In this document: one piece after another, positions 19,606 to 49,202 of the stretch
How the letters are laid out: every line of letters begins with the position of its first letter
Position numbering within the stretch: the stretch's first letter is position 1
DNA from: Escherichia coli
Lineage (GTDB): Bacteria > Pseudomonadota > Gammaproteobacteria > Enterobacterales > Enterobacteriaceae
Assembly (NCBI RefSeq): GCF_024700885.2
Contig: NZ_CP117016.1
Length of the DNA: 64,000 nucleotides
Reading direction: 5' to 3' (one strand)
Program-made: the position numbers and the translations under genes
Notes under the pieces: model-generated
Database searches by the model: none
What the model saw: the letters and a program-made list of their open reading frames with translations, nothing else
What the model was told of the DNA's origin: nothing

Positions 19606-19692
19606 TGGTGCGAGGGGGGGGACTTGAACCCCCACGTCCGTAAGGACACTAACACCTGAAGCTAGCGCGTCTACCAATTCCGCCACCTTCGC
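19606..19692 (-). tRNA. leuV: tRNA-Leu (anticodon CAG)
   Basis: 87-nt minus-strand tRNA: GCGAAGGTGGCGGAATTGGTAGACGCGCTAGCTTCAGGTGTTAGTGTCCTTACGGACGTGGGGGTTCAAGTCCCCCCCCTCGCACCA, with long variable arm and encoded CCA. Confidence 0.95.
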
Positions 19693-19726
19693 ACAGTCAT
19701 CTTACTTTTTTTGATATCGCCTCGTT

Positions 19727-19813
19727 TGGTGCGAGGGGGGGGACTTGAACCCCCACGTCCGTAAGAACACTAACACCTGAAGCTAGCGCGTCTACCAATT
19801 CCGCCACCTTCGC
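19727..19813 (-). tRNA. leuP: tRNA-Leu (anticodon CAG), variant copy
   Basis: Same 87-nt tRNA with one substitution in the variable arm (plus strand gtaagaac instead of gtaaggac). Confidence 0.93.
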
Positions 19814-19841
19814 CCAGTGCGAGCAATATCAACGTGGTTTT

Positions 19842-19928
19842 TGGTGCGAGGGGGGGGACTTGAACCCCCACGTCCGTAAGGACACTAACACCTGAAGCTA
19901 GCGCGTCTACCAATTCCGCCACCTTCGC
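19842..19928 (-). tRNA. leuQ: tRNA-Leu (anticodon CAG)
   Basis: Third tandem copy, identical to copy 1; first transcribed of the minus-strand leuQPV operon. Confidence 0.95.
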
Positions 19929-22205: not shown

Positions 22206-22883
22206 ATGAAGTGGGACTGGATTTTCTTTGATGCCGATGAAACGCTGTTTACCTTTGACTCATTCACCGGCCTGCAGCGGATGTTTCTTGATTACAGCGT
22301 CACCTTTACCGCTGAAGATTTTCAGGACTATCAGGCCGTTAACAAGCCACTGTGGGTGGATTATCAAAACGGCGCGATCACTTCATTACAGCTTCAGCAC
22401 GGGCGGTTTGAGAGCTGGGCCGAACGGCTGAACGTCGAGCCGGGTAAACTCAACGAAGCCTTTATTAATGCGATGGCGGAAATCTGTACGCCGCTGCCGG
22501 GCGCGGTTTCTCTGCTTAACGCCATTCGTGGCAACGCTAAAATTGGCATCATCACCAACGGCTTTAGCGCCTTGCAGCAAGTGCGTCTGGAACGCACGGG
22601 CCTGCGTGATTATTTCGATTTGCTGGTGATTTCCGAAGAAGTTGGCGTTGCCAAACCGAATAAGAAAATTTTCGATTATGCGCTGGAACAGGCGGGCAAT
22701 CCTGACCGTTCACGCGTGCTGATGGTTGGCGACACTGCCGAGTCCGATATTCTCGGTGGCATCAACGCCGGGCTTGCGACCTGCTGGCTGAATGCGCACA
22801 ATCGCGAGCAACCAGAAGGCATCGCGCCTACCTGGACCGTTTCTTCGTTGCACGAACTGGAGCAGCTCCTGTGTAAACACTGA
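22206..22883 (+). CDS. yjjG: HAD-family pyrimidine 5'-nucleotidase
   Basis: 225-aa ORF with HAD motif [10 protein letters not shown] and motif [14 protein letters not shown]. Confidence 0.9.
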
Positions 22884-22973
22884 TTGCCTCCCCCCCGTTG
22901 ATGGGTAAAATAGCCGCAATTTTTCGTTTTCAACAAGCGCGGCGCGATGCCGCTTACTCAAGAAGAAAGAATT

Positions 22974-23048
22974 ATGACGTTGTCTCCTTATTTGCAAGAG
23001 GTGGCGAAGCGCCGCACTTTTGCCATTATTTCTCACCCCAATAATTAA
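22974..23048 (+). pseudogene. prfC: 5' remnant of prfC (peptide chain release factor 3) interrupted by the prophage; attL region
   Basis: ATG at 22974 encodes [22 protein letters not shown], the RF3 N-terminus, then diverges inside the GTPase P-loop to NN-stop at 23046-23048. Confidence 0.75.
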
Positions 23049-23201
23049 GCCAAAATTAAAGCTCTTTTACTCTTTCAAAATCCTTTCAGTTAATTGAGGT
23101 TGAGCCATATAACTCATTTAAATACATTTAGTTATGTGGCTTCTTTAATTGAAAATTCTTTCATGTAACTTTAAATCGATCTGCTTGCTTTCATCAAAAA
23201 T

Positions 23202-23260
23202 CTGTACATGTGCTTGTACATAATGTACAAAACAGCAGAGGTGTTTTTTTATTTGTACAA
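23202..23260. promoter_or_regulatory. cluster of TGTACA-type palindromic sites upstream of int
   Basis: Perfect 17-bp palindrome ttgtacat-a-atgtacaa (23214-23230) plus flanking tgtacat and ttgtacaa half-sites within 60 bp, ending 9 bp before the int RBS. Confidence 0.5.
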
Positions 23261-23268
23261 GGTGAGTA

Positions 23269-24486
23269 ATGGCGCTGTCTGATGCGTGGTTGCGTTCAGT
23301 CGTTGGAAAGGAACGTGATAAGGTTTTGGTTAAATCCGATCGTGATGGTCTGTCTGTCAGAGTATCACCGAAAGGTCGCGTAGTGTTCCAATATCGTTAT
23401 CAATGGGCAGGGAAAGGTGAGCGCCTTGATATCGGAACTTACCCGGCAACTGGATTAAAAGAGGCCAGAGAAGAAGTTATCCGTCTCCGTGGTGAACTCG
23501 AGTCAAACCGCAATCCACGATTAGTCAGGCAGGCTGAAAAACGAAAAGCTACTGAAGCCATGACGGTAGAGTCTGTGATCCGTGCCTGGTATGAAGCATA
23601 TTGTGTAAAAAATAAAAAAGGTTCTGAACAGATACTCCGCTCGTTTGAGCTGCACCTGTTCTCTAAAATCGGGAATATCCCTCACGATGCAGCTACATTG
23701 CATGATTGGTTAGAAGTCCTGGAGCCTCTTAGCACTAAGACTCCAGCAATAGCAGACCGATTGCTAATTAACGCAAAGCAGGCCCATGTCTGGGCGTATA
23801 AGAGAAAGCTCATTGAAACTCGCCCACTGTCGGATATCACGGGTAAAGATATGGATATCCGTAAAGGTCAGAAGAAACGGTTTCTGACACATGATGAAAT
23901 TAAAATCCTTTATGCTGCGATCGATGGTTCTCGAATGGTTCCTAAATACCGGGCCTTCATTAAACTATTGCTGCATTTTGGCTGCCGTAGTTCAGAGCTA
24001 ATTACCGCCAGGGTGGACGATTTTGATTTCATTAATAAAGTATGGACTGTACCACCAGAACGACATAAGACTGGGGAGATAACAGGCGAACCGCTAAAGC
24101 GGCCCATTATTGAACCGGTTGAAGAGCTTATAAAGTACGCTATTTCTATGAACAATGGTTCCGATATGCTTTTTACTAAGGAAGGAAGCAGGGAACCCGT
24201 TGGTCGGACATCATTGCAGTCGCTGCCTTACAATTTAATGCAGTACGCATGGCGGCGTTTGGGGTATCAATTCCCTCATTGGTCTCTTCATGATTTGAGG
24301 CGAACAGCACGAACAAACTTTTCTGATCTTACTGCGCCTCATATTGCAGAAATAATGCTAGGTCATAAACTGCCAGGGGTATGGCAGGTTTATGACAAGA
24401 GCGATTATTTAGATGAACAGCGTAAAGCTTACCAGGCATGGTGGGAGAGAGTTGAATCGATAGTTACTTGTACTTGTTCAGACTAG
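23269..24486 (+). CDS. int: tyrosine site-specific integrase
   Basis: 405-aa ORF; C-terminal catalytic region with HDLRRTARTN and LGHKLPGVWQVYD (conserved R, H-x-x-R and Tyr); GGTGAG RBS. Confidence 0.9.
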   Translation: MALSDAWLRSVVGKERDKVLVKSDRDGLSVRVSPKGRVVFQYRYQWAGKGERLDIGTYPATGLKEAREEVIRLRGELESNRNPRLVRQAEKRKATEAMTVESVIRAWYEAYCVKNKKGSEQILRSFELHLFSKIGNIPHDAATLHDWLEVLEPLSTKTPAIADRLLINAKQAHVWAYKRKLIETRPLSDITGKDMDIRKGQKKRFLTHDEIKILYAAIDGSRMVPKYRAFIKLLLHFGCRSSELITARVDDFDFINKVWTVPPERHKTGEITGEPLKRPIIEPVEELIKYAISMNNGSDMLFTKEGSREPVGRTSLQSLPYNLMQYAWRRLGYQFPHWSLHDLRRTARTNFSDLTAPHIAEIMLGHKLPGVWQVYDKSDYLDEQRKAYQAWWERVESIVTCTCSD

Positions 24487-24619: not shown

Positions 24620-26752
24620 ATGGAACTGTTACAGGAACACGGGGCGATACTTAAAGTTGTAATCATGCCTACTACTGGGGAACAAACCATAATCCAAGGT
24701 TTCGATACTGGCCTCCTCAACCCAGAGATATCCAACATTCTTTTTTTATTGGCCAAAACACCAAAAGAAATTAGTGAGATTTTTGTCAATGAAAATGATA
24801 ACTTTCAGCCTACTCTAAGCGGGCTAAATCCTATTTTTTTAATATCTAAAGAAAATCTTGAAAAAATACCAGATATTTATCAAACGCCATTTTGCTTAAT
24901 TTTTTGTGCTAAAGAAGATTTTTCGTATGTTTGTGCTTTAAAAAAACATTTTGCTATACCACCTATAATTTGTTGCAATTCTAAACGCGCTGATCTACCA
25001 CTTAATAAGATTAATAGTATATACTCATTTGATAAGGTGCTCTTCTCTCGGTTGAAATTCATTGAGGATAAAATAAGAAAAAATCACAGTGAAAAGAAAA
25101 TATCAACGAAGTTGAAGCGAAGAGGGGCTTTATTTAATAAATCACCTTGGAGATCGACGCTTAACAATTCAACACTACCCAATGAGTTGTTAATTGAATC
25201 ACTTGGCTATATGCTATCTCCACCAAAAAGAATTAAAGATGGTAGTAGCAAAAGAGAGTTTATAGAAATAATACTTCATAGCGTTGATGCATACACCGAA
25301 TGTTTAAAGGAATTAGATATACCACTTCCAACGGAAGTCTTACTTTTTGCTCCGGGTATGCACTCTTTTTTATATGATAAAAATAATGACTTTTATGAGT
25401 TAATAACGGAAAATTTATCCACAATTGAGAAAAAATTCCTTATTGATGGAGTGTTGAGGAATCCAGGCTATTCTGGAATTAGACTTGATATAAATTCAGA
25501 TAGAAAAGAACTTTTTAAAAGTCCTGCTTTCCGTTACCTCACCTCACTAAGACGAGCTGAAATGCGATTAACAACAGCTGCGATTACTTTATTTAGCATA
25601 AATAAAAAAATCCCAGCAATAAGATTGCCAAATGCAATAAATCATTACTCCAATTATTTGAAAAATCTTGAAGATCTTGCAACTTCTTCTGGGATAAATA
25701 GTGAAGCATTCATCACTAAATCTAAAGCATTCAATACTGTTATTCGAAGAGCCCTTGGTTGCAAGTTGAGAACATATATAAGTAAAAACTATAGCGATTT
25801 GTCCTTTGTTTGTGATGTACCATTGGATTGGATTAGGTTTAATAACATACCTATAATGTTCAGTCATGAGATATCAAGAATAAATGCTACGCCTGGTAAC
25901 GTTCTTCTACAGAGCGCCTCTGCTTTTCCGCGCGTTTTAGTAAAAGCATCTGAGTTGAGAAAGGTTTTAGTTATACGTTCTTTTGAGCCTGATGATCACT
26001 TAAAGTTCATATTAGAGAACGCAATTGAGATATTTAAAAAACAGATGCCAGATCTTGATTGCGAGATTATTGATGTTAGATCGAAAGCTGAGTTTATTGA
26101 TGCTCTAAATCAATATCAAGGTCATATTCTTGTTATGGATTGTCATGGAAACCATGATGGCAATGGGAGTCATGGATGGTTAATAATAGGTGAGGATAAA
26201 GTGGACACTTGGAGTTTGAGAAAAATAGCAAGAATTCCTCCTATCGTAATTCTGAGTGCATGTTTAACATCTGCCCTAAGTGGTTCTCATGCCTCTGTTG
26301 CTAATGGCTTCGTTATAAGTGGTGCATTAAGTGTCATCGGAACATTACTGCCTGTAAATGCGATAGACTCTGCTGTTTTTGTAAGTCGGTTGATCTACCG
26401 GTTTTACGAGTTTCCTTCGACGCTATCTACAAATTTTACACATGTTAATGTAAGGCTTTTTCTTTCTGTTTTTCTTAGGATGTCCTATGCAAGCGATTTA
26501 ATAAGAGGATTTTTATCTGAAGATTTGATACCGAATAATTCATGGAAGAAAGATGCAGTTGATATTAACATGTATATAAACATGCTTCACCATGATTGGT
26601 ATGATTATGTAATTAACAAATTGACGATGTTAACGGGGCTCACGAAAAAAGATGTACTTGATTTTATCGATAGAAAATTATTCATAACCGAAACTATGTG
26701 CTATAGCCAAATTGGATTTCCAGATGCAATCACAATTAGTCTTAAAGATTGA
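24620..26752 (+). CDS. large AT-rich cargo protein with C-terminal caspase-like (CHAT-type) His/Cys protease signature; candidate defence protein
   Basis: ATG at 24620 (AGGA 6 nt upstream) gives ~710 aa. C-terminal region HILVMDCHGNHDGNGSHGWLIIGE...IPPIVILSACLTSALSGSH...GALSVIGTLLPVNAIDSAVFVSRLIYRFY has the His (HG) then Cys (SAC) spacing of clan-CD peptidases. N-terminal ~500 aa unassigned. Confidence 0.7.
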   Translation: MELLQEHGAILKVVIMPTTGEQTIIQGFDTGLLNPEISNILFLLAKTPKEISEIFVNENDNFQPTLSGLNPIFLISKENLEKIPDIYQTPFCLIFCAKEDFSYVCALKKHFAIPPIICCNSKRADLPLNKINSIYSFDKVLFSRLKFIEDKIRKNHSEKKISTKLKRRGALFNKSPWRSTLNNSTLPNELLIESLGYMLSPPKRIKDGSSKREFIEIILHSVDAYTECLKELDIPLPTEVLLFAPGMHSFLYDKNNDFYELITENLSTIEKKFLIDGVLRNPGYSGIRLDINSDRKELFKSPAFRYLTSLRRAEMRLTTAAITLFSINKKIPAIRLPNAINHYSNYLKNLEDLATSSGINSEAFITKSKAFNTVIRRALGCKLRTYISKNYSDLSFVCDVPLDWIRFNNIPIMFSHEISRINATPGNVLLQSASAFPRVLVKASELRKVLVIRSFEPDDHLKFILENAIEIFKKQMPDLDCEIIDVRSKAEFIDALNQYQGHILVMDCHGNHDGNGSHGWLIIGEDKVDTWSLRKIARIPPIVILSACLTSALSGSHASVANGFVISGALSVIGTLLPVNAIDSAVFVSRLIYRFYEFPSTLSTNFTHVNVRLFLSVFLRMSYASDLIRGFLSEDLIPNNSWKKDAVDINMYINMLHHDWYDYVINKLTMLTGLTKKDVLDFIDRKLFITETMCYSQIGFPDAITISLKD

Positions 26753-39126: not shown

Positions 39127-40179
39127 ATGAAAAATACTGTAAAAATAAACAGTGTTGATTTAATCAACGCTGATTGCCTGCATTTTATTCAGTCCCTGCC
39201 TGATGATTCCATTGACCTGATTGTTACCGATCCGCCGTACTTCAAGGTGAAACCCAACGGCTGGGACAATCAGTGGAAAGGGGACGAAGATTACCTTAAG
39301 TGGCTGGACCACTGTCTGGCCCAGTTCTGGCGGGTGTTAAAACCTGCCGGAAGCCTTTACCTGTTCTGTGGGCATCGCCTGGCATCTGATATTGAGATCA
39401 TGATGCGTGAACGTTTCAACGTGCTTAACCATATCATCTGGGCGAAGCCGTCCGGACGTTGGAATGGGTGTAATAAAGAAAGTCTGCGCGCATATTTTCC
39501 TGCCACAGAGCGCGTTCTGTTTGCTGAACATTACCAGGGGCCATATCGCGGCAAAAGTGACGGCTATGCAGCAAAAGAAAGGGAACTCAAACAGCACATA
39601 ATGGCACCGCTGATATCGTATTTCAGGGATGCTCGTGCCGAACTGGGTATAACGGCAAAACAAATTGCCGAAGCCACAGGTAAGAAAAATATGGTTTCCC
39701 ACTGGTTTGGTGCCAGTCAGTGGCAGTTGCCGAATGAGGCTGACTATCGGAAGTTACAGGCACTGTTTTCCCGTATAGCGGCAGAGAAGTTTCAGGAACA
39801 ACAACTGGAACAACCACACCACCAGCTGGTGGCATCTTATGATTCACTGAATCGTAAATATTCTGAATTGCTGGATGAGTTTAAATCTCTCCGGCGCTAT
39901 TTCTCCGTATCAGTCTCCGTGCCTTATACCGATGTCTGGATGCATAAACCCGTTCAGTTCTACCCGGGGAAACATCCGTGTGAGAAACCGGCGGATATGC
40001 TCAGGCAAATAATCAATGCCAGTAGTCGACCTGGTGATCTGGTTGCTGATTTTTTTATGGGATCCGGTTCCACAATAAAAGCAGCAATGGCGCTGGGGCG
40101 TCGGGCCTTAGGTGTTGAGCTTGAGTCAGAGCGGTTTAACCAGACAGTGAAAGAGATAAACGAGCTGGTGGGGAAATAA
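39127..40179 (+). CDS. orphan DNA methyltransferase (N6-adenine or N4-cytosine class, DPPY motif)
   Basis: 350-aa ORF; catalytic motif IVTDPPYF near the N-terminus and a C-terminal SAM-binding region (FFMGSGST); no adjacent restriction endonuclease gene. Confidence 0.85.
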
Positions 40180-42238: not shown

Positions 42239-42733
42239 ATGGATCGAGAGTTAAAAAATCTGACGCTGAATATCAGTCAACTGGCGGCACTGTCAGGTGT
42301 ACATCGCCAGACTGCTGCGGCAAGGCTGCAAAATCTACCCGTTGCAGGGGGGCATGAAAGCAACCTCAAGCTTTATCGGGTGGTTGATATTGTGTCGGCA
42401 TTTCTGGCATTACCACCGCCGGTTGCAGAAGGCGAAATGGACGCGCATGAGCGCAAAGCCTGGTATCAGTCTGAACGTGAGCGTCTTAAGTTCGAACAGG
42501 AAACGGCGCAACTCATTCCGGCCAGTGATGTCAGACGGGAGTTTGCCATCTGGGCAAAAGCGGTCGTGCAGGTGCTGGAGACATTACCGGATATTCTGGA
42601 ACGTGACTGCGGTCTGCAGCCTGCCGCTGTGAGCCGTGTTCAGTCCATTATTGATGATCTGCGCGATCAGATAGCCCTGCGGGTGACCGAAGCAGGTGCG
42701 GATGATGAGGAGGAATTACAGCAGGAGGAGTAA
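42239..42733 (+). CDS. terminase small subunit
   Basis: 164-aa ORF with N-terminal HTH-like segment (NISQLAALSGVHRQTAAARLQ) and acidic C-terminus; immediately upstream of the large subunit with overlap. Confidence 0.7.
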   Translation: MDRELKNLTLNISQLAALSGVHRQTAAARLQNLPVAGGHESNLKLYRVVDIVSAFLALPPPVAEGEMDAHERKAWYQSERERLKFEQETAQLIPASDVRREFAIWAKAVVQVLETLPDILERDCGLQPAAVSRVQSIIDDLRDQIALRVTEAGADDEEELQQEE

Positions 42734-44835
42734 TGCTGGATCAGGAAACCGCAAAGGCAGCACGAACCGATTCAGGTTATATCCTTCGCGCACCGAGACG
42801 AATGCGGGTTGCTGATGCCGTTGCTCAGTATATGCGGGTGCCCATGGGGGCAGGGAACTCAGTCCCGTGGGATCCGCTGGTGGCACCGTATGTTATTGAG
42901 CCGATGAACTGCCTGGCCTCGCGTGAATACGACGCAGTGATATTTGTTGGCCCGGCACGAACCGGCAAGACTATCGGCCTGATTGACGGCTGGGTGATTT
43001 ACAACGTGATTTGCGATCCTGCTGATATGCTGATCATTCAGATGACGGAGGAAAAAGCCCGCGAACACTCCAAAAAACGACTCGCCAGAACGTTTCGCGT
43101 CAGCCCGGAAGTGGTCAGTCGCCTGAGTCCGAACAAAAATGACAACAACGTTTATGACAGAACATTCCTTGCTGGTAACTACCTGAAAATCGGCTGGCCG
43201 TCAGTCAATATCATGTCCTCATCAGATTATAAATGCGTCGCGCTGACGGATTATGACCGTTTTCCGGAAGATATTGATGGCGAGGGGGATGCTTTCTCTC
43301 TTGCCTCAAAACGTACCACAACATTTATGTCCAGTGGTATGACGCTGGTGGAGAGTTCCCCCGGCAGGGATGTGAAGGATGTGAAATGGCGACGGACTTC
43401 ACCGCATGAGGCTCCACCAACCACGGGTATACTGTCGCTCTATAACCGTGGCGATCGCCGTCGCTGGTACTGGCCCTGTCCACACTGCGGTGAGTATTTT
43501 CAGCCCTGCGGCGATGTGGTTGCTGGTTTCCGTGATATTGCCGATCCCGTTCTGGCAAGTGAGGCGGCTTATATTCAGTGTCCTTCCTGTTCAGGACGGA
43601 TTATGCCTGAACAAAAACGTGAGCTGAACGGACGTGGGGTCTGGTTGCGGGATGGTGAATCCATCAATGCGGATGGCAGTCGTTATGGTGATCCCCGACG
43701 CTCACGTATTGCGTCATTCTGGATGGAGGGTCCGGCAGCTGCTTACCAGACACTCTCGCAACTCGTTTACAAACTGCTTACTGCAGAACAGGAATACGAG
43801 ACAACCGGAAGTGAAGAAACACTCAAGACGGTTATCAATACCGACTGGGGATTACCTTATCTTCCCCGCGCCAGCATGGAGCAACGAAAAAGTGAACTGC
43901 TTGAGCAGCGGGCAGAGCCAGTTCCTTCCCGCAGTGTGCCGGATGGCGTTAATTTCCTTGTGGCGACAGTGGATGTGCAGGCGGGACGTCATCGCCGTTT
44001 TGTGGTTCAGGTAACAGGCTATGGCAGCCGTGGCGAACGCTGGATTATTGATCGTTACAATATCACGCAGTCATTGCGCGGTGACAGCGACGGGGAGAGC
44101 CAGCGAATTGATCCGGCCAGCTATCCGGAAGACTGGGATGTCCTGCTGACGGATGTTTTTCATAAAAGCTGGCCGCTGGCCTCCGATCCTTCTCAACAAA
44201 TGCGACTGATGGCAATGGCGGTGGACTCCGGCGGTGAAGACGGGGTCACTGATAATGCCTATAAATTCTGGCGTCGTTGCCGTCGTGATGGCCTTGGTAA
44301 ACGTATTTACCTGTTTAAGGGCGACAGCATCCGGCGCGCAAAACTGATCACCCGTACATTCCCTGATAACACCGGACGAACGGGCCGACGGGCGCAGGCC
44401 GCAGGTGATGTGCCGCTCTGGCTTCTTCAGACGGATGCCCTGAAAGACCGGGTGAATAACGCGTTATGGCGTGACTCGCCAGGTCCAGGCTATGTGCATT
44501 TCCCTGACTGGCTGGGGAGCTGGTTTTACGACGAACTGACGTATGAAGAGCGGAGCAGTGACGGGAAATGGAGTAAGCCGGGTCGCGGTGCCAACGAAGC
44601 CTTTGACCTGATGGTGTATGCCGAGGCTCTGGTCATTCTGCATGGATACGAAAAGATCCGCTGGCCGGATGCACCGGAGTGGGCGAGCCGGGAAACCTGG
44701 CTGGAGTGTGTCCCGGACAGTACCGAACCGTCACCCTCACCGGAACCGGTATCCACGCCTGTTAAAAAACAAAAACGGAAGAAAACAGTAACTGACGATG
44801 TTAACCCCTGGCTGACTTCCGGAGGATGGTTATGA
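42733..44835 (+). CDS. terminase large subunit (lambda gpA-like)
   Basis: 700-aa ORF; ATPase Walker A region VGPARTGKT and C-terminal nuclease domain; GGAGGAG RBS. Confidence 0.9.
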   Translation: MLDQETAKAARTDSGYILRAPRRMRVADAVAQYMRVPMGAGNSVPWDPLVAPYVIEPMNCLASREYDAVIFVGPARTGKTIGLIDGWVIYNVICDPADMLIIQMTEEKAREHSKKRLARTFRVSPEVVSRLSPNKNDNNVYDRTFLAGNYLKIGWPSVNIMSSSDYKCVALTDYDRFPEDIDGEGDAFSLASKRTTTFMSSGMTLVESSPGRDVKDVKWRRTSPHEAPPTTGILSLYNRGDRRRWYWPCPHCGEYFQPCGDVVAGFRDIADPVLASEAAYIQCPSCSGRIMPEQKRELNGRGVWLRDGESINADGSRYGDPRRSRIASFWMEGPAAAYQTLSQLVYKLLTAEQEYETTGSEETLKTVINTDWGLPYLPRASMEQRKSELLEQRAEPVPSRSVPDGVNFLVATVDVQAGRHRRFVVQVTGYGSRGERWIIDRYNITQSLRGDSDGESQRIDPASYPEDWDVLLTDVFHKSWPLASDPSQQMRLMAMAVDSGGEDGVTDNAYKFWRRCRRDGLGKRIYLFKGDSIRRAKLITRTFPDNTGRTGRRAQAAGDVPLWLLQTDALKDRVNNALWRDSPGPGYVHFPDWLGSWFYDELTYEERSSDGKWSKPGRGANEAFDLMVYAEALVILHGYEKIRWPDAPEWASRETWLECVPDSTEPSPSPEPVSTPVKKQKRKKTVTDDVNPWLTSGGWL

Positions 44836-45044
44836 ATCAGAATGATATTGAAGCCATGATTCAGCGTTATACGGAAGCTGAAATGGCGGTGCTGGACGGA
44901 AAATCCGTCACCTTTAATGGTCAGCAGATGACCATGGAAAACTTATCTGAGATCCGGCAGGGACGGCAGGAGTGGGAGCGCCGCCTTGCGGCTCTGATTA
45001 CACGACGACGGGGGCATCCCGGGTACCGGCTGGCGAGGTTCTGA
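44826..45044 (+). CDS. head-tail joining protein (gpW-like)
   Basis: 72-aa ORF between terminase and portal; size and position as lambda W. Confidence 0.5.
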   Translation: MVMNQNDIEAMIQRYTEAEMAVLDGKSVTFNGQQMTMENLSEIRQGRQEWERRLAALITRRRGHPGYRLARF

Positions 45045-46552
45045 TGGCAATTCTTGATGATGTGATTGGCGTTTTTTCACCAGGATGGAAAGCGGCAAGG
45101 CTGCGTTCCCGTGCGGTGATCCAGGCTTATGAGGCCGTAAAAACGACGCGGACACACAAAGCCCGGCGGGAAAACCGAACTGCCGACCAGTTAAGCCAGT
45201 ACGGGGCCGTGTCGTTACGTGAGCAGGCCCGTTACCTTGATAACAACCACGATCTGGTTATTGGTGTATTTGACAAGCTGGAAGAACGGGTGGTGGGGAA
45301 AAACGGGATTATTGTCGAGCCACATCCGGTATTACGCAATGGGGCCATTGCCCGTGATCTGGCAGCGGAGATTCGCACCCGATGGAGTGAATGGTCTGTC
45401 AGCCCGGAAGTCACCGGGCAGTTTACCCGTCCGATGCTGGAACGTCTGATGCTGCGTACCTGGCTGCGCGATGGTGAGGTGTTTGCCCAGATGGTTTCCG
45501 GGCGCATAAACAGCCTGACGCCTTCTGCCGATGTTCATTTCTGGCTGGAGGCGCTCGAGCCAGACTTTATTCCCATGACCAGTGATGAGAGCAACAGGCT
45601 GAATCAGGGCGTGTTTGTTGATGACTGGGGGCGTCCCGAAAAATATCTGGTGTATAAAAGCCGTCCCGTATCCGGACGGCAGATGGAAACCAAAGAAGTG
45701 GATGCAGAGCGAATGCTGCATCTTAAATTTGTTCGCCGTCTGCACCAGATGCGCGGGACGTCTTTGTTGTCCGGTGTGCTGATCCGCCTCAGTGCCCTGA
45801 AAGAGTATGAAGATTCTGAGCTGACTGCAGCAAGGATCGCCGCTGCTCTGGGGATGTACATCCGGAAAGGCGACGGGCAGAGCTATGAACCGGATGGTAA
45901 TGGCAGCAAGGATAAGGAACGCGAGCTTACCATTCAGCCAGGCATTATTTACGACGATCTGAAACCCGGCGAAGAAATTGGAATGGTGAAGTCGGATCGC
46001 CCCAATCCTAATCTTGAAACTTTTCGTAATGGTCAGTTGCGTGCCGTGGCGGCGGGCAGTCGTCTGAGTTTTTCCAGTACGGCACGCAACTATAACGGCA
46101 CTTACAGCGCCCAGCGTCAGGAACTGGTTGAGTCTACTGATGGCTACCTGATCCTGCAGGACTGGTTTATTGGTGCCGTCACCCGCCCGATGTATCGTGC
46201 ATGGCTGAAACAGGCTGTGGCATCCGGTGTTATCAGGCTACCCCGTGATCTTGACCGTTCTTCACTGTATACCGCGGTGTATTCCGGACCAGTGATGCCG
46301 TGGATTGACCCTGTTAAGGAGGCTGAGGCCTGGAAAATCCAGATTCGTGGTGGAGCGGCGACAGAATCAGACTGGGTACGTGCTGGTGGTCGTAATCCGG
46401 ATGATGTCAAACGTCGGCGCAAGGCCGAAATTGATGAAAACCGCAAGCTGGATCTGGTATTTGATACCGATCCGGCCAGTGATAAAGGAGGCAGCAGTGC
46501 CGCAACGAAACGACAGGAGCCGCAGCACACCGACGACCAGTCCGAAGAATAA
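45044..46552 (+). CDS. portal protein
   Basis: ATG at 45044 overlapping the W stop (TGATG) gives 502 aa; position between terminase/W and the prohead protease. Confidence 0.8.
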   Translation: MAILDDVIGVFSPGWKAARLRSRAVIQAYEAVKTTRTHKARRENRTADQLSQYGAVSLREQARYLDNNHDLVIGVFDKLEERVVGKNGIIVEPHPVLRNGAIARDLAAEIRTRWSEWSVSPEVTGQFTRPMLERLMLRTWLRDGEVFAQMVSGRINSLTPSADVHFWLEALEPDFIPMTSDESNRLNQGVFVDDWGRPEKYLVYKSRPVSGRQMETKEVDAERMLHLKFVRRLHQMRGTSLLSGVLIRLSALKEYEDSELTAARIAAALGMYIRKGDGQSYEPDGNGSKDKERELTIQPGIIYDDLKPGEEIGMVKSDRPNPNLETFRNGQLRAVAAGSRLSFSSTARNYNGTYSAQRQELVESTDGYLILQDWFIGAVTRPMYRAWLKQAVASGVIRLPRDLDRSSLYTAVYSGPVMPWIDPVKEAEAWKIQIRGGAATESDWVRAGGRNPDDVKRRRKAEIDENRKLDLVFDTDPASDKGGSSAATKRQEPQHTDDQSEE

Positions 46553-46565
46553 TTCCTGGTTCAGG

Positions 46566-48524
46566 ATGCAGGCTGGTCACCAGAGTGACGCGGATATTTA
46601 TATTTATGACGAGATTGGTTTCTGGGGGGTTACAGCGAAGCAGTTTATCAGTGATCTGAATGCACTGGGCGATATCACCCACATTAATCTCCATATCAAT
46701 TCACCGGGTGGCGATGTCTTTGAAGGCATCGCCATTTTTAATGCGCTGAAAACACATGGTGCGTCCATTACCGTTTATGTCGACGGTGTGGCGGCGTCAA
46801 TGGCGTCGGTCATTGCGATGGTGGGAAACCCGGTCATTATGCCGGAAAACACCTTCATGATGATTCATAAACCATTTGGCTTTACGGGCGGTGATGCGGA
46901 GGACATGCGCACCTATGCCGACCTGCTCGATAAGGTTGAGGCGGTTCTGTTACCCGCTTATGCACAGAAAACCGGGAAAACCACCGATGAAATTGCTGCC
47001 ATGCTGGCGGATGAGACCTGGATGTCCGGAGCCGAATGTCTGGCTCATGGATTTGCTGATCAGGTAACGCCAGCCGTTAAGGCAATGGCATGTATTCAGT
47101 CAAAACGTACAGAGGAATTTAAAAAGATGCCGGAATCCATTCGAAACATGATTACTCCGCCACGCAACAGTGCTCCACGCGTACCGGATGATGAACCAGC
47201 AGCACCCCGGACGCCAGTGCAGGCAGCAGCACCAGTGGTGGATGAAAACAGTATCCGTGCGCAGGTACTGGCAGAGCAAAAAGCGCGTGTAAACGGTATT
47301 AATGATCTGTTTGCCATGTTTGGCGGACGTTATCAGGCGCTGCAGGCTCAGTGCCTTGCCGATCCTGAGTGTTCGCTGGAGCAGGCCCGCGAGAAGCTGT
47401 TGAACGAGATGGGGCGCGAGTCCACGCCATCCAATAAAAATACCCCGGCTCATATTTATGCCGGTAACGGTAATTTTGTGGGGGACGGGATCCGCCAGGC
47501 GCTGATGGCGCGTGCCGGATTTGAAAAAACCGAACGTGATAATGTCTACAACGGGATGACTCTGCGTGAATATGCCCGTATGTCACTGACTGAACGGGGT
47601 ATTGGGGTTTCCAGTTATAACCCGATGCAGATGGTCGGTGCGGCGTTCACACACAGTACGTCTGACTTCGGTAATATTCTGCTGGATGTTGCGAACAAAG
47701 CCATTCTGCAGGGCTGGGAAGATGCCCCTGAAACCTATGAACAGTGGACGCGGAAAGGTCAGTTGTCTGATTTTAAAATTGCCCATCGAGTGGGTATGGG
47801 GGGCTTCAGTGCTCTGCGTCAGGTGCGTGAAGGGGCGGAATATAAATACGTCACCACCGGAGATAAACAGGCCACTATTGCACTGGCGACCTATGGCGAG
47901 CTGTTCAGTATCACCCGTCAGGCCATTATCAATGATGATTTGAATATGCTGACCGATGTCCCGATGAAACTGGGCCGTGCGGCGAAATCCACTATTGCCG
48001 ATCTGGTTTATGCCATTCTGACGTCTAACCCGAAAATCTCCACAGATAATGTAAGTCTGTTCGATAAAGCGAAACATGCAAACGTACTGGAGAGCGCTGC
48101 AATGGACGTGGCATCGCTGGATAAAGCCCGCCAGTTGATGCGCGTTCAGAAAGAGGGGGAGCGTCATCTGAATATTCGTCCTGCGTTCGTACTGGTACCG
48201 ACGGCGATGGAGTCTGTTGCTAACCAGGTCATTCGCTCCTCAAGTGTCAAGGGGGCTGACATTAACGCCGGTATTATTAACCCGGTGAAAGATTTTGCGA
48301 CCGTTATTGCAGAGCCTCGTCTTGATGATAACAGCCAGACCACCTTCTACCTGGCTGCGTCAAAAGGCTCCGATACGATTGAAGTGGCTTATCTCAACGG
48401 TGTGGATACGCCATATATTGATCAGATGGAGGGCTTCAGTGTGGATGGCGTGACAACGAAAGTGCGTATTGACGCCGGTGTCGCGCCAGTTGATCACCGC
48501 GGTCTGGTGAAATGTACGGCGTAA
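46566..48524 (+). CDS. prohead protease (ClpP/S49-like) fused to major capsid protein
   Basis: N-terminal ~200 aa has the ClpP-family fold signature (INSPGGDVFEGIAIF...VAASMASVIAM...MIHKP); C-terminal ~350 aa is capsid-like. Start assigned to the first ATG after the portal stop; weak RBS. Confidence 0.75.
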   Translation: MQAGHQSDADIYIYDEIGFWGVTAKQFISDLNALGDITHINLHINSPGGDVFEGIAIFNALKTHGASITVYVDGVAASMASVIAMVGNPVIMPENTFMMIHKPFGFTGGDAEDMRTYADLLDKVEAVLLPAYAQKTGKTTDEIAAMLADETWMSGAECLAHGFADQVTPAVKAMACIQSKRTEEFKKMPESIRNMITPPRNSAPRVPDDEPAAPRTPVQAAAPVVDENSIRAQVLAEQKARVNGINDLFAMFGGRYQALQAQCLADPECSLEQAREKLLNEMGRESTPSNKNTPAHIYAGNGNFVGDGIRQALMARAGFEKTERDNVYNGMTLREYARMSLTERGIGVSSYNPMQMVGAAFTHSTSDFGNILLDVANKAILQGWEDAPETYEQWTRKGQLSDFKIAHRVGMGGFSALRQVREGAEYKYVTTGDKQATIALATYGELFSITRQAIINDDLNMLTDVPMKLGRAAKSTIADLVYAILTSNPKISTDNVSLFDKAKHANVLESAAMDVASLDKARQLMRVQKEGERHLNIRPAFVLVPTAMESVANQVIRSSSVKGADINAGIINPVKDFATVIAEPRLDDNSQTTFYLAASKGSDTIEVAYLNGVDTPYIDQMEGFSVDGVTTKVRIDAGVAPVDHRGLVKCTA

Positions 48525-48610: not shown

Positions 48611-48934
48611 ATGGCAAAGAATTTTGTAGAAGAAGGAAAAACGGTGGCGATTGTTGCCAGTGCAGCCATCAGCAGCGGAGATCTGGTGCAGGTGGGTGAT
48701 GTTTTTGCGGTGGCACTGACCGATATTCCACAGGGTGAAACAGGCGACGGCCTGACCGAAGGTGTGTTTATGCTGCCTAAGCTGAAAACGGATGACATGA
48801 AAACGGGTAAGAAGGTTTATCTGAAGTCCGGAAAAGTTCAGCTGACTAACAGCGGCTCTGATCCGCTGGTCGGGGTTGTCTGGGCAGATGCCGGAACCAG
48901 TGCAGAAGAAGTGCCGGTAAAACTCAATGTCTGA
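48611..48934 (+). CDS. small head protein (DUF2190-like, possible head decoration)
   Basis: 107-aa ORF from ATG 48611 (GGAG RBS), directly after the capsid gene. Confidence 0.45.
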   Translation: MAKNFVEEGKTVAIVASAAISSGDLVQVGDVFAVALTDIPQGETGDGLTEGVFMLPKLKTDDMKTGKKVYLKSGKVQLTNSGSDPLVGVVWADAGTSAEEVPVKLNV

Positions 48935-49202
48935 TCCCTTTTCCCGGCTGGCAGCGCGTATGGATGCGATCACGGTCAGAAAGATGGGAAAGACAGCCTC
49001 GATTAATGATGTCGATATGACTGTGATCCCGGGAGAAACACTGGCAGAGCTGAATGCTCTGTCCGGACCTGCGGTCTCTCTGGTGGTGTTTTCTTCGGGA
49101 TACCGCCCACGGCGCGGGGATCGCGTTGTTTATGACGGACAACATTGGACGGTCACACGGCATGAACGCTTTAACGGTAAGCCAATGATCTTTATTGAGT
49201 AA
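48927..49202 (+). CDS. head-tail connector / head completion protein
   Basis: 91-aa ORF between head and tail modules; assignment by position only. Confidence 0.4.
   Translation: MSDPFSRLAARMDAITVRKMGKTASINDVDMTVIPGETLAELNALSGPAVSLVVFSSGYRPRRGDRVVYDGQHWTVTRHERFNGKPMIFIE

Follow-up and report, generated by a model that had tools for sequence, protein, structure and literature searches.

In phage HK97 the maturation protease gp4, of the S78 type, and gp5, which comprises the delta domain and the capsid protein, are encoded by two genes, and the delta domain is removed by the co-encapsidated protease. The protease of phage lambda belongs to the S49 family and is not ClpP/S14-like, and both lambda C/Nu3 and Mu I/Z contain nested in-frame scaffold starts. 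Protease, scaffold and capsid protein can also be found in one gene of about 690 aa, as has been described in silico for gp5 of the Pseudomonas phage MD8 and for MD8-like phages, where nested initiation was not considered (PMC8508860). Capsid-protease fusions are likewise known from actinobacteriophages, namely from the Arthrobacter clusters AM, AU and AN and from Rhodococcus RRH1 (PMC5513430).

Here we analysed a gene of this kind in a window of 64,000 nt from Escherichia coli (contig NZ_CP117016.1), in which a prophage is integrated beside yjjG in the chromosome. The features identified are listed in Table 1; residues are numbered on the 675-aa protein unless stated otherwise.

Table 1. Features of the fusion gene and its immediate neighbours
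Feature	Position	Strand	Basis or remark
Lambda-family portal gene, directly upstream	45044..46552	+	Pfam Phage_portal_2, E 6.4e-82; RefSeq annotation
Shine-Dalgarno AAGGAGG, 5 nt before GTG 46497	46485..46491	+	Duplex of -11.6 kcal/mol, strongest in frame
Complete fusion gene: ClpP-like putative prohead protease, putative scaffold, major capsid protein	46497..48524	+	675 codons and TAA, 73.5 kDa
Overlap of fusion 5' end with portal 3' end, other frame	46497..46552	+	56 nt; portal CDS 45044-46552
ClpP-fold (S14-like) head-maturation protease domain, residues 21-192	46557..47072	+	Pfam, NF045542, AF2, Foldseek
Putative catalytic Ser101 codon, motif AASMAS	46797..46799	+	Aligns with ClpP active-site Ser motif
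Putative catalytic His124 codon, motif MIHKP	46866..46868	+	Aligns with ClpP MIHQP motif
Glu173 codon, at ClpP catalytic Asp position	47013..47015	+	ClpP alignment
Candidate internal initiation region: GAGGA 47112-47116, A/U-rich spacer, ATG 47127 (Met211)	47112..47129	+	Conservation
Pro/Ala-rich disordered linker, residues 223-245	47163..47231	+	AF2 pLDDT <50
Three-helix scaffold-like segment, residues 250-308	47244..47420	+	AF2 helices 250-273, 280-288 and 294-308, pLDDT 88-96
HK97-fold major capsid protein domain, residues 327-675	47475..48521	+	38 kDa; Pfam, AF2, Foldseek
Head decoration (cement) protein gene, DUF2190/Phage_cement_2, directly downstream	48611..48934	+	Pfam, PHROG, RefSeq

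The fusion frame and its family

The frame beginning at ATG 46566 extends on the plus strand to 48524 and consists of 652 codons followed by TAA, with no stop inside. Pfam analysis of the 652-aa translation identified CLP_protease (PF00574) at residues 23-168 with an E value of 4.5e-36 and Phage_capsid_4 at residues 354-649 with an E value of 1.2e-54, and PF25209 scored 186.8 bits on the C-terminal capsid part against a cut-off of 27. Since both Pfam matches lie in a single stop-free translation, the protease and capsid domains are in one frame; a preliminary description of this DNA, which had proposed a 652-aa fusion of the two, was right on this point, and neither a stop codon nor a frameshift was found between the domains.

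The protein matched the NCBIfam model NF045540, named 'ClpP-like prohead protease/major capsid protein fusion protein', with 986.7 bits (curated cut-off 475). The match covers the full length, residues 9-651 in 652-aa numbering corresponding to model positions 2-651 of 652, and PHROG 133 also matches over the full length. In comparison with four homologues, dN/dS was 0.04-0.30 in all regions including the protease, the linker and the capsid; by this measure all parts of the fusion are under purifying selection, and because of these values the ORF is far beyond what chance would produce. These sequence comparisons place the gene in a known protease/scaffold/capsid fusion family of lambdoid prophages, among whose members it is nothing unusual, and the fusion is not new.

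Public annotations of the family are at odds over its name, given as protease, scaffold, Nu3 or major head protein, and they also place the start codon differently.

Translation start of the fusion gene

The fusion frame is open from 46296, and GTG 46497 is the only start codon in it that has a genuine ribosome-binding site. The Shine-Dalgarno (SD) energy at ATG 46566 is -2.2 kcal/mol, compared with -11.6 kcal/mol at the GTG. RefSeq annotates the GTG start, with the CDS WP_001442205.1 at the corresponding coordinates, in strain MLI114, the DNA of which is 100% identical over the 2.3 kb queried, and a start codon with a strong SD of the same motif occupies the same alignment column in Eeyore, CP-1639 and IMG/VR homologues. 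ATG 46566 itself encodes residue 24 of the 675-aa protein; this position is M, I, L or V in relatives and lies inside the conserved motif W-[FY]-x-[MI]-x-A. A scan for synonymous conservation, for which the overlap with the portal gene served as positive control, gave its strongest peak in the gene (z 3.7) at that overlap. On the sequence evidence, the true start is GTG 46497, located 69 bases upstream of ATG 46566, and the gene occupies 46497-48524. The earlier doubt about the ATG start, raised on account of its poor ribosome-binding site, was thus well founded, and the start has been moved.

Linker, scaffold-like segment and capsid domain

A fold search with the full-length AF2 model (pLDDT 86) returned ClpP matches only; therefore, residues 246-675 were modelled separately, giving a second AF2 model with a pLDDT of 90.5. 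The identity of the capsid domain had to be sought by fold, because a PDB sequence search with the C-terminal part yielded only marginal matches, to the gpT-domain capsids 8rkc and 8rkx (E 5.5e-4). The Foldseek search of the C-terminal model against PDB returned encapsulins and phage capsids with a probability of 1.0 and E values of 1e-9 to 1e-7, including phiXacJX1, P4, SU10, D3, HK97 Head II and T5. Together with the Phage_capsid_4 match, this bears out the capsid fold that had been proposed for the C-terminal region. The Pfam family Mu-like_gpT (PF10124) was matched with 33.5 bits (gathering threshold 20.1) over only 69 of its 289 profile positions, and Mu gpT is a distant relative of the capsid domain.

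The alignment varies most, and has the most gaps, in the linker. The helical segment that follows it has a dN/dS of 0.15-0.19 and directly precedes the HK97 fold, as in the delta-domain layout of HK97 gp5; from its position and predicted helicity, it may be a scaffold analogous to lambda Nu3 or to the HK97 delta domain. Cleavage at maturation probably takes place within the low-confidence segment 309-326. The presence of a cement gene downstream suggests that the shell is stabilised by cement rather than by chainmail cross-links.

A candidate internal start at Met211

The ATG of Met211 lies at the junction between the protease and the scaffold-like segment. This ATG was present in 32 out of 32 non-redundant homologues (47-100% identity), and all 32 carry AGGA 9-10 nt upstream of it; the weakest SD among them at this site was -5.4 kcal/mol, and by this measure no other of the 675 columns is as consistent. 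Codon 206 always has the form xAG in this set (GAG in 21 of 21 Glu codons and AAG in 5 of 5 Lys codons), and a synonymous-conservation peak with z of about 3 covers the site. The region is also the least-structured 60-nt window of the mRNA across the 32 homologues (mean z +2.36, rank 1-2 of 675), and in the present sequence the MFE there is -1.6 against a gene mean of -14.0. Similar signals were observed in the relatives fused to an S78 protease: in 9 of 11, the internal ATG with the best SD of the whole gene is at the protease/scaffold junction, with SD energies of -6.6 to -12.3 kcal/mol and a spacing of about 6 nt.

The SD energy taken by itself was rejected as a pointer to Met211. The internal SD in our window is weak (-6.0 kcal/mol, spacing about 10 nt) and ranks third among the internal ATGs, and only 2 of 10 distant members of the ClpP type have their best internal ATG at the junction. 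Since this ranking fails to single out Met211, the argument is based on the conservation of the site, on the constraint at synonymous positions and on the structure of the mRNA. The conserved ATG and AGGA, the synonymous peak, the low mRNA structure and the signals in the S78-fused relatives make nested products probable, and we consider it somewhat better than an even chance that the fusion ORF is a nested gene pair, in which ATG 47127 would give a protease-free capsid precursor.

The main alternative is that the 675-aa chain is the only product, so that the protease sits on all of the approximately 415 shell subunits and the ATG and AGGA at Met211 are a protein motif or a relic. We regard this as quite possible though not probable. 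It is favoured by the 5' SD, which is far stronger than the internal one (-11.6 versus -6.0 kcal/mol), by the third rank of the internal ATG, and by the wider ClpP-type family, where Met211 is replaced by A, V, I, P or T while F208 and P212 are kept as residues family-wide; the motif E-E/D-F-x-x-M-P could be conserved for protein reasons. By a rough estimate that was not derived from a structure, 415 copies of an internal part of 35 kDa would take up about half the space in a T=7 procapsid, which is dense but physically possible. Against a single product, codon 206 invariably ends in a synonymous G, whereas GAA and AAA occur at the Glu and Lys codons nearby. In the 32 homologues, the point of lowest mRNA structure in the gene coincides exactly with the Met211 ATG; a textbook SD with ATG is found at the same junction in S78-type relatives, and the nested scaffolds of lambda and Mu are well-known precedents.

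We found no mention of nested initiation in this gene class in the accessible literature, which describes the family in silico only; no N-terminal sequences, processing sites or mass spectrometry of virions or proheads for the family were found there. Relatives with unfused genes have a gene for a 240-aa ClpP-like protease that is followed directly by a capsid gene of about 390 aa. The protein P0166 (443 aa) and the protein P0228 (468 aa), which each begin with MP..SAK aligned to Met211-Pro212, looked like natural unfused scaffold-capsid proteins but were rejected and not counted as evidence for the internal start: of the two loci, L085 has a frameshifted fusion and L084 is cut by the contig end.

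The protease domain

The N-terminal domain matched NF045542 (Clp_rel_HeadMat, 'head maturation protease, ClpP-related') with 215.8 bits against a cut-off of 120. It was modelled by AF2 with pLDDT above 90, and Foldseek aligned it to ClpP structures in PDB with TM scores (target) of 0.74-0.82 over about 167 columns. Among 118 diverse homologues, Ser101 is kept in 116 and His124 in 117, and position 173, which is Asp in canonical ClpP, is acidic in 112 (Glu in 102 and Asp in 10). The score with the ClpP equivalog model TIGR00493 was 59.7 bits, far under the cut-off of 308.6. We concluded that the protease part has the ClpP fold and is not a cellular ClpP. Of the 'ClpP/S49-like' character given to it in the preliminary description, the ClpP half is confirmed by Pfam, AF2 and Foldseek and the S49 half has to be dropped, since the SppA model scored 22.4 bits against a cut-off of 155; a relationship to S49 and lambda C was rejected on the NCBIfam and Pfam scores.

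The domain identity, the conserved catalytic residues and the genomic position point to a protease of the prohead class, and the near-invariant Ser101 and His124, the acidic residue 173 and the established behaviour of prohead proteases suggest that the fusion would process itself. It might be supposed that the ClpP-like domain is a dead protease acting only as a bulky scaffold, with cleavage left to a host protease, given that the third triad residue is Glu instead of Asp and that the equivalog score is so low; this is quite improbable, as Ser101 and His124 are near-invariant across more than 100 divergent clusters and the head-maturation model NF045542 is matched well above its cut-off.

Distribution and genomic context

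DNA of the fusion gene was found in 2,124 of 5,426 complete E. coli genomes (39%) under the NF045540 family name, and a continuous ORF at a coverage of at least 80% in 2,017 complete genomes. A gene about 99% identical is present in the isolated phages mEp460, cdtI (98-99% for these two), Tritos, Ayreon and phi458. In the protein databases, the clusters of 675 aa have 8,230 and 357 members, and more than 100 clusters (at 50% identity) align to the fusion over its full length. The unusualness implied by the preliminary description was therefore overstated: the family is curated, widespread in E. coli genomes, present in isolated phages and represented in the literature (PMC8508860; PMC5513430).

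The order of the head module is terS, terL, a gpW-like gene, portal, fusion, decoration and tail genes. The flanks are lambda-like, as had been described, with a gpA-type terminase, a lambda-family portal and tail genes of the Z/U/V/G/T/H/M/L/K/I/J type. No separate capsid, scaffold or protease gene was found between the portal and the tail genes by Pfam, PHROG or the RefSeq annotation. The decoration gene matched Pfam PF09956 (E 3.6e-20) and PHROG 122 'head decoration' (E 7.9e-47); no match to the gpD family was seen for it, Pfam giving Phage_cement_2/DUF2190.

Defective prophages are common in E. coli, and IS629 insertions occur near the related CP-1639 and VT1-Sakai loci, so the fusion might be suspected to be a non-functional remnant of a decaying prophage. 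We think this very unlikely, because every part of the gene has a dN/dS well under 1, the catalytic residues are preserved, the surrounding head-tail module is complete and intact, and the phages carrying the gene with about 99% identity have been grown on E. coli C, K-12 and MC1061. That two genes only seem to be fused through a sequencing or assembly frameshift is refuted by the many complete genomes and independent phage isolates with the same ORF, by its continuity in homologues from many taxa down to 28-40% identity and by the purifying selection on the linker region, although broken copies do exist in databases, such as the copy in L085, which was called as two genes; that it is a frameshifted fusion follows from the capsid frame, which is open upstream through the homologous ...SNRIKDFHNM segment.

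Database proteins of 1,159 aa that join portal, protease and capsid prompted us to consider a programmed frameshift between the portal and protease genes. This was rejected; since the junctions differ between entries within 46296-46552, these proteins are independent 1-nt indels or errors.

Proposed assembly and maturation

As a whole, the observations are best explained by a fusion of the known family together with the following mechanism, to which we assign a probability of roughly 0.85. Translation would begin at GTG 46497, where it might be coupled to the portal gene's end, and would give the 73.5-kDa chain, in which the ClpP-fold serine protease, the flexible Pro/Ala linker, the three-helix scaffold and the HK97-fold capsid domain follow one another. 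The capsid domains would assemble the procapsid shell on the portal, with the N-terminal protease and scaffold facing inward; the protease would be encapsidated because it is covalently attached to the shell subunits. After assembly, it would cut off everything N-terminal of about residues 310-326 and digest itself and the scaffold, leaving a mature capsid protein of about 38 kDa, and the downstream DUF2190 decoration protein would then stabilise the shell. Initiation at Met211 would add a 50.6-kDa chain of scaffold and capsid without the protease, equivalent to HK97 gp5 with its delta domain, and only a fraction of the shell subunits would then carry the protease. Of this mechanism, the analysis shows the ORF and both folds, the conservation of the catalytic residues and of the start signals, and the family membership; the proteolysis, the place where it cuts, the role of the helices as a scaffold and initiation at the internal start are inferred.

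The fusion as such alters nothing; its family is curated and occurs in roughly two in five complete E. coli genomes as well as in cultured phages. The practical value of the analysis is that the start is settled at GTG 46497 and that a residue-level domain map is available, against inconsistent public annotations. The internal start, if true, would explain how about 415 proteases per procapsid are avoided despite the protease being on the capsid chain; how much protease the procapsid contains relative to capsid protein would be determined by the two start sites, and the nested-gene principle of lambda C/Nu3 and Mu I/Z would extend through the capsid gene. Because a nested start is apparently also present in the S78-type fusions, with stronger signals, the rule would then be a general one for this widespread gene class, and one that has not been described so far. 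The question also bears on the engineering of HK97-fold or encapsulin-like cages with tethered cargo.

Comparison with known systems

The closest relatives are the NF045540 members in mEp460, cdtI, Tritos, Ayreon, Fels-1, the long-tailed Stx phages and E. coli and Shigella prophages, which share both the architecture of the present gene and the gene order portal, fusion, DUF2190 decoration and tail, with no substantive difference. With the MD8-like phage BR233a, the protein shares 57% identity over 97% of its length, and the internal ATG with AGGAG is the same there; the MD8-like phages differ in their Pseudomonas host and in a longer linker. The NF045541 family ('prohead protease/major capsid protein fusion protein') shares the scaffold and capsid families, the layout and the size with the present gene, and residues 197-649 (652-aa numbering) scored 400.9 bits with this model, below its family cut-off of 525. 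It differs in having an N-terminal Peptidase_S78 of the HK97 gp4 type instead of a ClpP-like domain, and its internal SD and ATG are much stronger.

Like the C/Nu3/D/E genes of lambda, the present gene occupies the slot between a lambda-family portal gene and tail genes; a decoration protein is encoded here as well, the terminase and the tail genes are lambda-like, and lambda C is likewise a protease with a C-terminal scaffold segment. The arrangement is nevertheless unlike that of lambda, as stated in the preliminary description: lambda E is a separate gene, whereas the present frame continues from the protease through the capsid protein. HK97 gp5 resembles the present chain in carrying an N-terminal scaffold domain on an HK97-fold capsid, and the putative Met211 product would be its direct analogue; no sequence relationship to the HK97 capsid protein was detected, the similarity being in the fold alone (E about 1e-7, 15% identity). 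The actinobacteriophage fusions, like the present gene, combine a maturation protease and the major capsid subunit in one gene, and they show that such fusions arose repeatedly.

Start codon of the fusion gene

The preliminary description had placed a protease-capsid fusion gene at 46566-48524. Translation of this segment (+ strand) gives 652 stop-free residues with Pfam matches to CLP_protease (E 4.5e-36, residues 23-168 of the 652-aa translation) and Phage_capsid_4 (E 1.2e-54, residues 354-649), and a weaker one to Mu-like gpT; the two regions are indeed continuous in a single frame. The same description suspected that translation might begin elsewhere than at ATG 46566, which was also borne out. 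The frame is open from 46296, and a comparison of all in-frame starts showed that GTG 46497 is the only one with a real Shine-Dalgarno (SD) sequence (AAGGAGG, 5 bases upstream, -11.6 kcal/mol), the SD energy of ATG 46566 being only -2.2 kcal/mol. The window matches the chromosome of E. coli strain MLI114 at 100% (1-34569) and 99.996% (34400-60700), and the MLI114 CDS in RefSeq begins at the equivalent of 46497 and encodes 675 aa. In the Eeyore, CP-1639, Fels-1, BR233a and IMG/VR homologues, a start codon preceded by a strong SD occupies the same or a nearby alignment column. The position of ATG 46566 is occupied by M, I, L or V across relatives, within a conserved W-[FY]-x-[MI]-x-A motif, and tblastn alignments with stand-alone phage ClpP-like proteases start between residues 1 and 21 of the 675-aa protein, before this Met is reached. 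From the RefSeq start, the SD, the homologue starts and the conserved upstream residues, we concluded that the gene is 46497-48524 and starts at GTG 46497, not at ATG 46566. Its 5' end overlaps the final 56 nt of the portal gene. Residues are hereafter numbered in the 675-aa form, residue n lying at window nt 46497 + 3(n-1).

About a dozen proteins of 1135-1159 aa in public databases, some named 'phage portal protein', look like portal-protease-capsid fusions; such chimeras are possible because the fusion frame is open far upstream. The frame switch lies at a different place in each (window 46296-46552, the portal 3' end and fusion 5' overlap), and we therefore considered them to be independent 1-nt indels or sequencing errors, not one genuine fusion. 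Two apparent stand-alone scaffold-capsid proteins were likewise discarded, one being a frameshifted copy and the other a contig-end truncation.

Domain architecture and proposed processing

The full protein was modelled by AlphaFold2 from a 91-sequence alignment (mean pLDDT 86), and residues 246-675 were modelled separately (pLDDT 90.5). The segments are listed in the table together with the head module genes.

Features of the head module and segments of the fusion protein
Feature	Window position (nt)	Residues	Source or remark
Small terminase	42239-42733
gpA-type large terminase	42733-44835
gpW-like adaptor	44832-45044
Lambda-family portal	45044-46552
Disordered		1-17	AlphaFold2
ClpP fold		21-192	AlphaFold2
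Two short helices		203-219	AlphaFold2
Disordered Pro/Ala-rich linker		223-245	AlphaFold2
Three confident helices		250-273, 280-288, 294-308	AlphaFold2
Low-confidence segment		309-326	AlphaFold2
Large alpha/beta domain		327-675	AlphaFold2
DUF2190/Phage_cement_2 decoration protein	48611-48934		downstream of fusion gene
Lambda Z, U, V, G, T, H, M, L, K, I, J-type tail genes			after 91-aa protein gene

Foldseek against the PDB matched the N-terminal domain to ClpP (target-normalised TM 0.74-0.82, about 167 columns). Ser101 and His124 are kept in 116 and 117 of 118 homologues, respectively, and residue 173 is acidic in most (Glu in 102, Asp in 10); the three align with the ClpP triad. A PDB sequence search with the capsid part gave marginal matches. 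The assignment of the C-terminal region as a capsid held when its fold was checked: the model of residues 246-675 matched encapsulins and phage capsids (probability 1.0, E 1e-9 to 1e-7, about 290-300 columns), including phiXacJX1, FCWL1, P4 procapsid, SU10, D3, HK97 Head II and T5. The dN/dS values against four homologues were 0.06-0.20 for the protease part, 0.15-0.30 for the linker and scaffold, and 0.04-0.18 for the capsid part. Just before His124, at 46839-46859 (residues 115-121, MPENTFM), synonymous sites within the protease domain show a second conservation peak (z up to 3.4), besides those described below, and the homologue alignment contains no consistent SD-like motif there.

By what is established for head assembly in HK97, lambda and Mu, self-processing by the fusion protein is plausible. 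The capsid domains would build the procapsid shell with the protease and helical segment facing inward, so that the protease would be encapsidated through its covalent attachment to the shell subunit and not by means of a targeting tail. Once assembly is complete, cleavage dependent on Ser101/His124 would remove and degrade everything N-terminal of about residues 309-326, leaving a ~38-kDa capsid protein, and the shell would then expand and be stabilised by the decoration protein.

Head module and prophage surroundings

No second capsid, scaffold or protease gene was found in the head module. The 91-aa ORF after the decoration gene (48927-49202, +) bears the RefSeq name 'DNA breaking-rejoining protein'; over its full length it corresponds to PHROG 153 'minor tail protein' (E 1.8e-46), and the RefSeq label probably misleads. 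Up to about 23 kb the window consists of host genes (hpa operon, tsr, lgo, opgB, dnaTC), with three tandem tRNA-Leu genes at about 19606-19928, and the prophage is integrated beside yjjG (22206-22883; junction region ~22206-24486). At its attachment-site end, a gene for a 710-aa CHAT-domain protein (24620-26752, +; coordinates converted from the RefSeq annotation of MLI114, a 100% match there) adjoins the integrase gene (23269-24486) and is a candidate for an accessory or defence function. The antiterminator gene and the lysis cassette (essD/rrrD) flank a gene for a 350-aa DNA methyltransferase (39127-40179, +), a location typical of morons in lambdoid prophages.

Distribution and recombination

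The framing of the fusion as an unusual mosaic was overstated, since such fusions are already known. The protein scores 986.7 bits (cut-off 475) against the curated NCBIfam family NF045540, 'ClpP-like prohead protease/major capsid protein fusion protein', and 215.8 bits (cut-off 120) against NF045542, "head maturation protease, ClpP-related"; a PHROG 133 match spans it end to end. By Megablast, the fusion DNA is present in 2124 of 5426 complete E. coli genomes, annotated under the exact NF045540 name. Genes of ~99% identity occur in the isolated phages mEp460, cdtI, Tritos, Ayreon, phi458 and HannyBb, and genes of ~77% identity in CP-1639 and the long-tailed Stx phages. Scanning 1.84 billion cluster representatives yielded >100 full-length relatives at 36-60% identity, and 80 of the phage records matched by tblastn align with at least 80% of the protein. 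For Pseudomonas phage MD8, an in silico study has described the same architecture (PMC8508860), and independent protease-capsid fusions were noted in Arthrobacter and Rhodococcus phages (PMC5513430). Our literature searches found no experimental work on the NF045540-type family and no proteomic data.

Relatives that lack the fusion show its component parts: in Vibrio phage K272 and Paenibacillus phage ABAtENZ, a 240-aa ClpP-like protease gene directly precedes a ~390-aa capsid gene. With CP-1639 as the reference, dN is low in the protease part (0.07) and high in the capsid part (0.22); with Fels-1, which megablast matches over nt 955-2019 only, it is the other way round (protease 0.31, capsid 0.06). 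From this opposite pattern we infer intragenic mosaicism and place a recombination joint in the linker region, inside the one ORF. In four IMG/VR contigs (L059, L063, L067, L075) the same scaffold and Phage_capsid_4 module is joined to an HK97-type Peptidase_S78 protease instead of a ClpP-like one, an in-situ swap of the protease family inside a fusion gene; at the junction these genes have a strong SD with an internal ATG.

A candidate internal start at Met211

A check for an internal start, also proposed earlier, revealed a conserved candidate, ATG 47127 (Met211), precisely where the protease domain gives way to the linker. In all 32 non-redundant homologues (47-100% identity) the codon is ATG and AGGA stands 9-10 nt upstream; the weakest SD among them is -5.4 kcal/mol. 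This is the most consistently SD-like column of all 675, and the only conserved Met column with such a signal. The AG of AGGA comes from codon 206, which is GAG wherever it encodes Glu (21/21) and AAG wherever it encodes Lys (5/5), whereas the Glu and Lys codons nearby are GAA and AAA. A window of 7 codons there forms a synonymous-conservation peak (z about 3.0), comparable to that of the portal overlap used as a control (z 3.7). Of all 60-nt mRNA windows in the gene, the one centred on Met211 has the least structure (mean z +2.36 over the 32 homologues, rank 1-2 of 675; MFE in this gene's own sequence -1.6 against a gene mean of -14.0 ± 4.5 kcal/mol). In 9 of 11 S78-type fusions, the internal ATG with the best SD of the entire gene is at the protease/scaffold junction (-6.6 to -12.3 kcal/mol, ideal ~6-nt spacing).

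The SD of Met211 in the window gene is weak and distant, ranking third among internal ATGs, and Met211 is not conserved across the wider ClpP-type family (118-homologue alignment); the E-E/D-F-x-x-M-P motif might be conserved at the protein level instead of as a start signal. Taken together, the conserved ATG and AGGA, the synonymous constraint, the mRNA minimum and the S78 junction ATGs suggest, with a probability of roughly 55%, that initiation at Met211 yields a nested product of 465 aa (50.6 kDa) comprising scaffold and capsid without the protease. We consider the conserved internal initiation signal of more interest than the fusion as such. The putative Met211 product would resemble HK97 gp5, and the arrangement would resemble lambda C/Nu3 and Mu I/Z.
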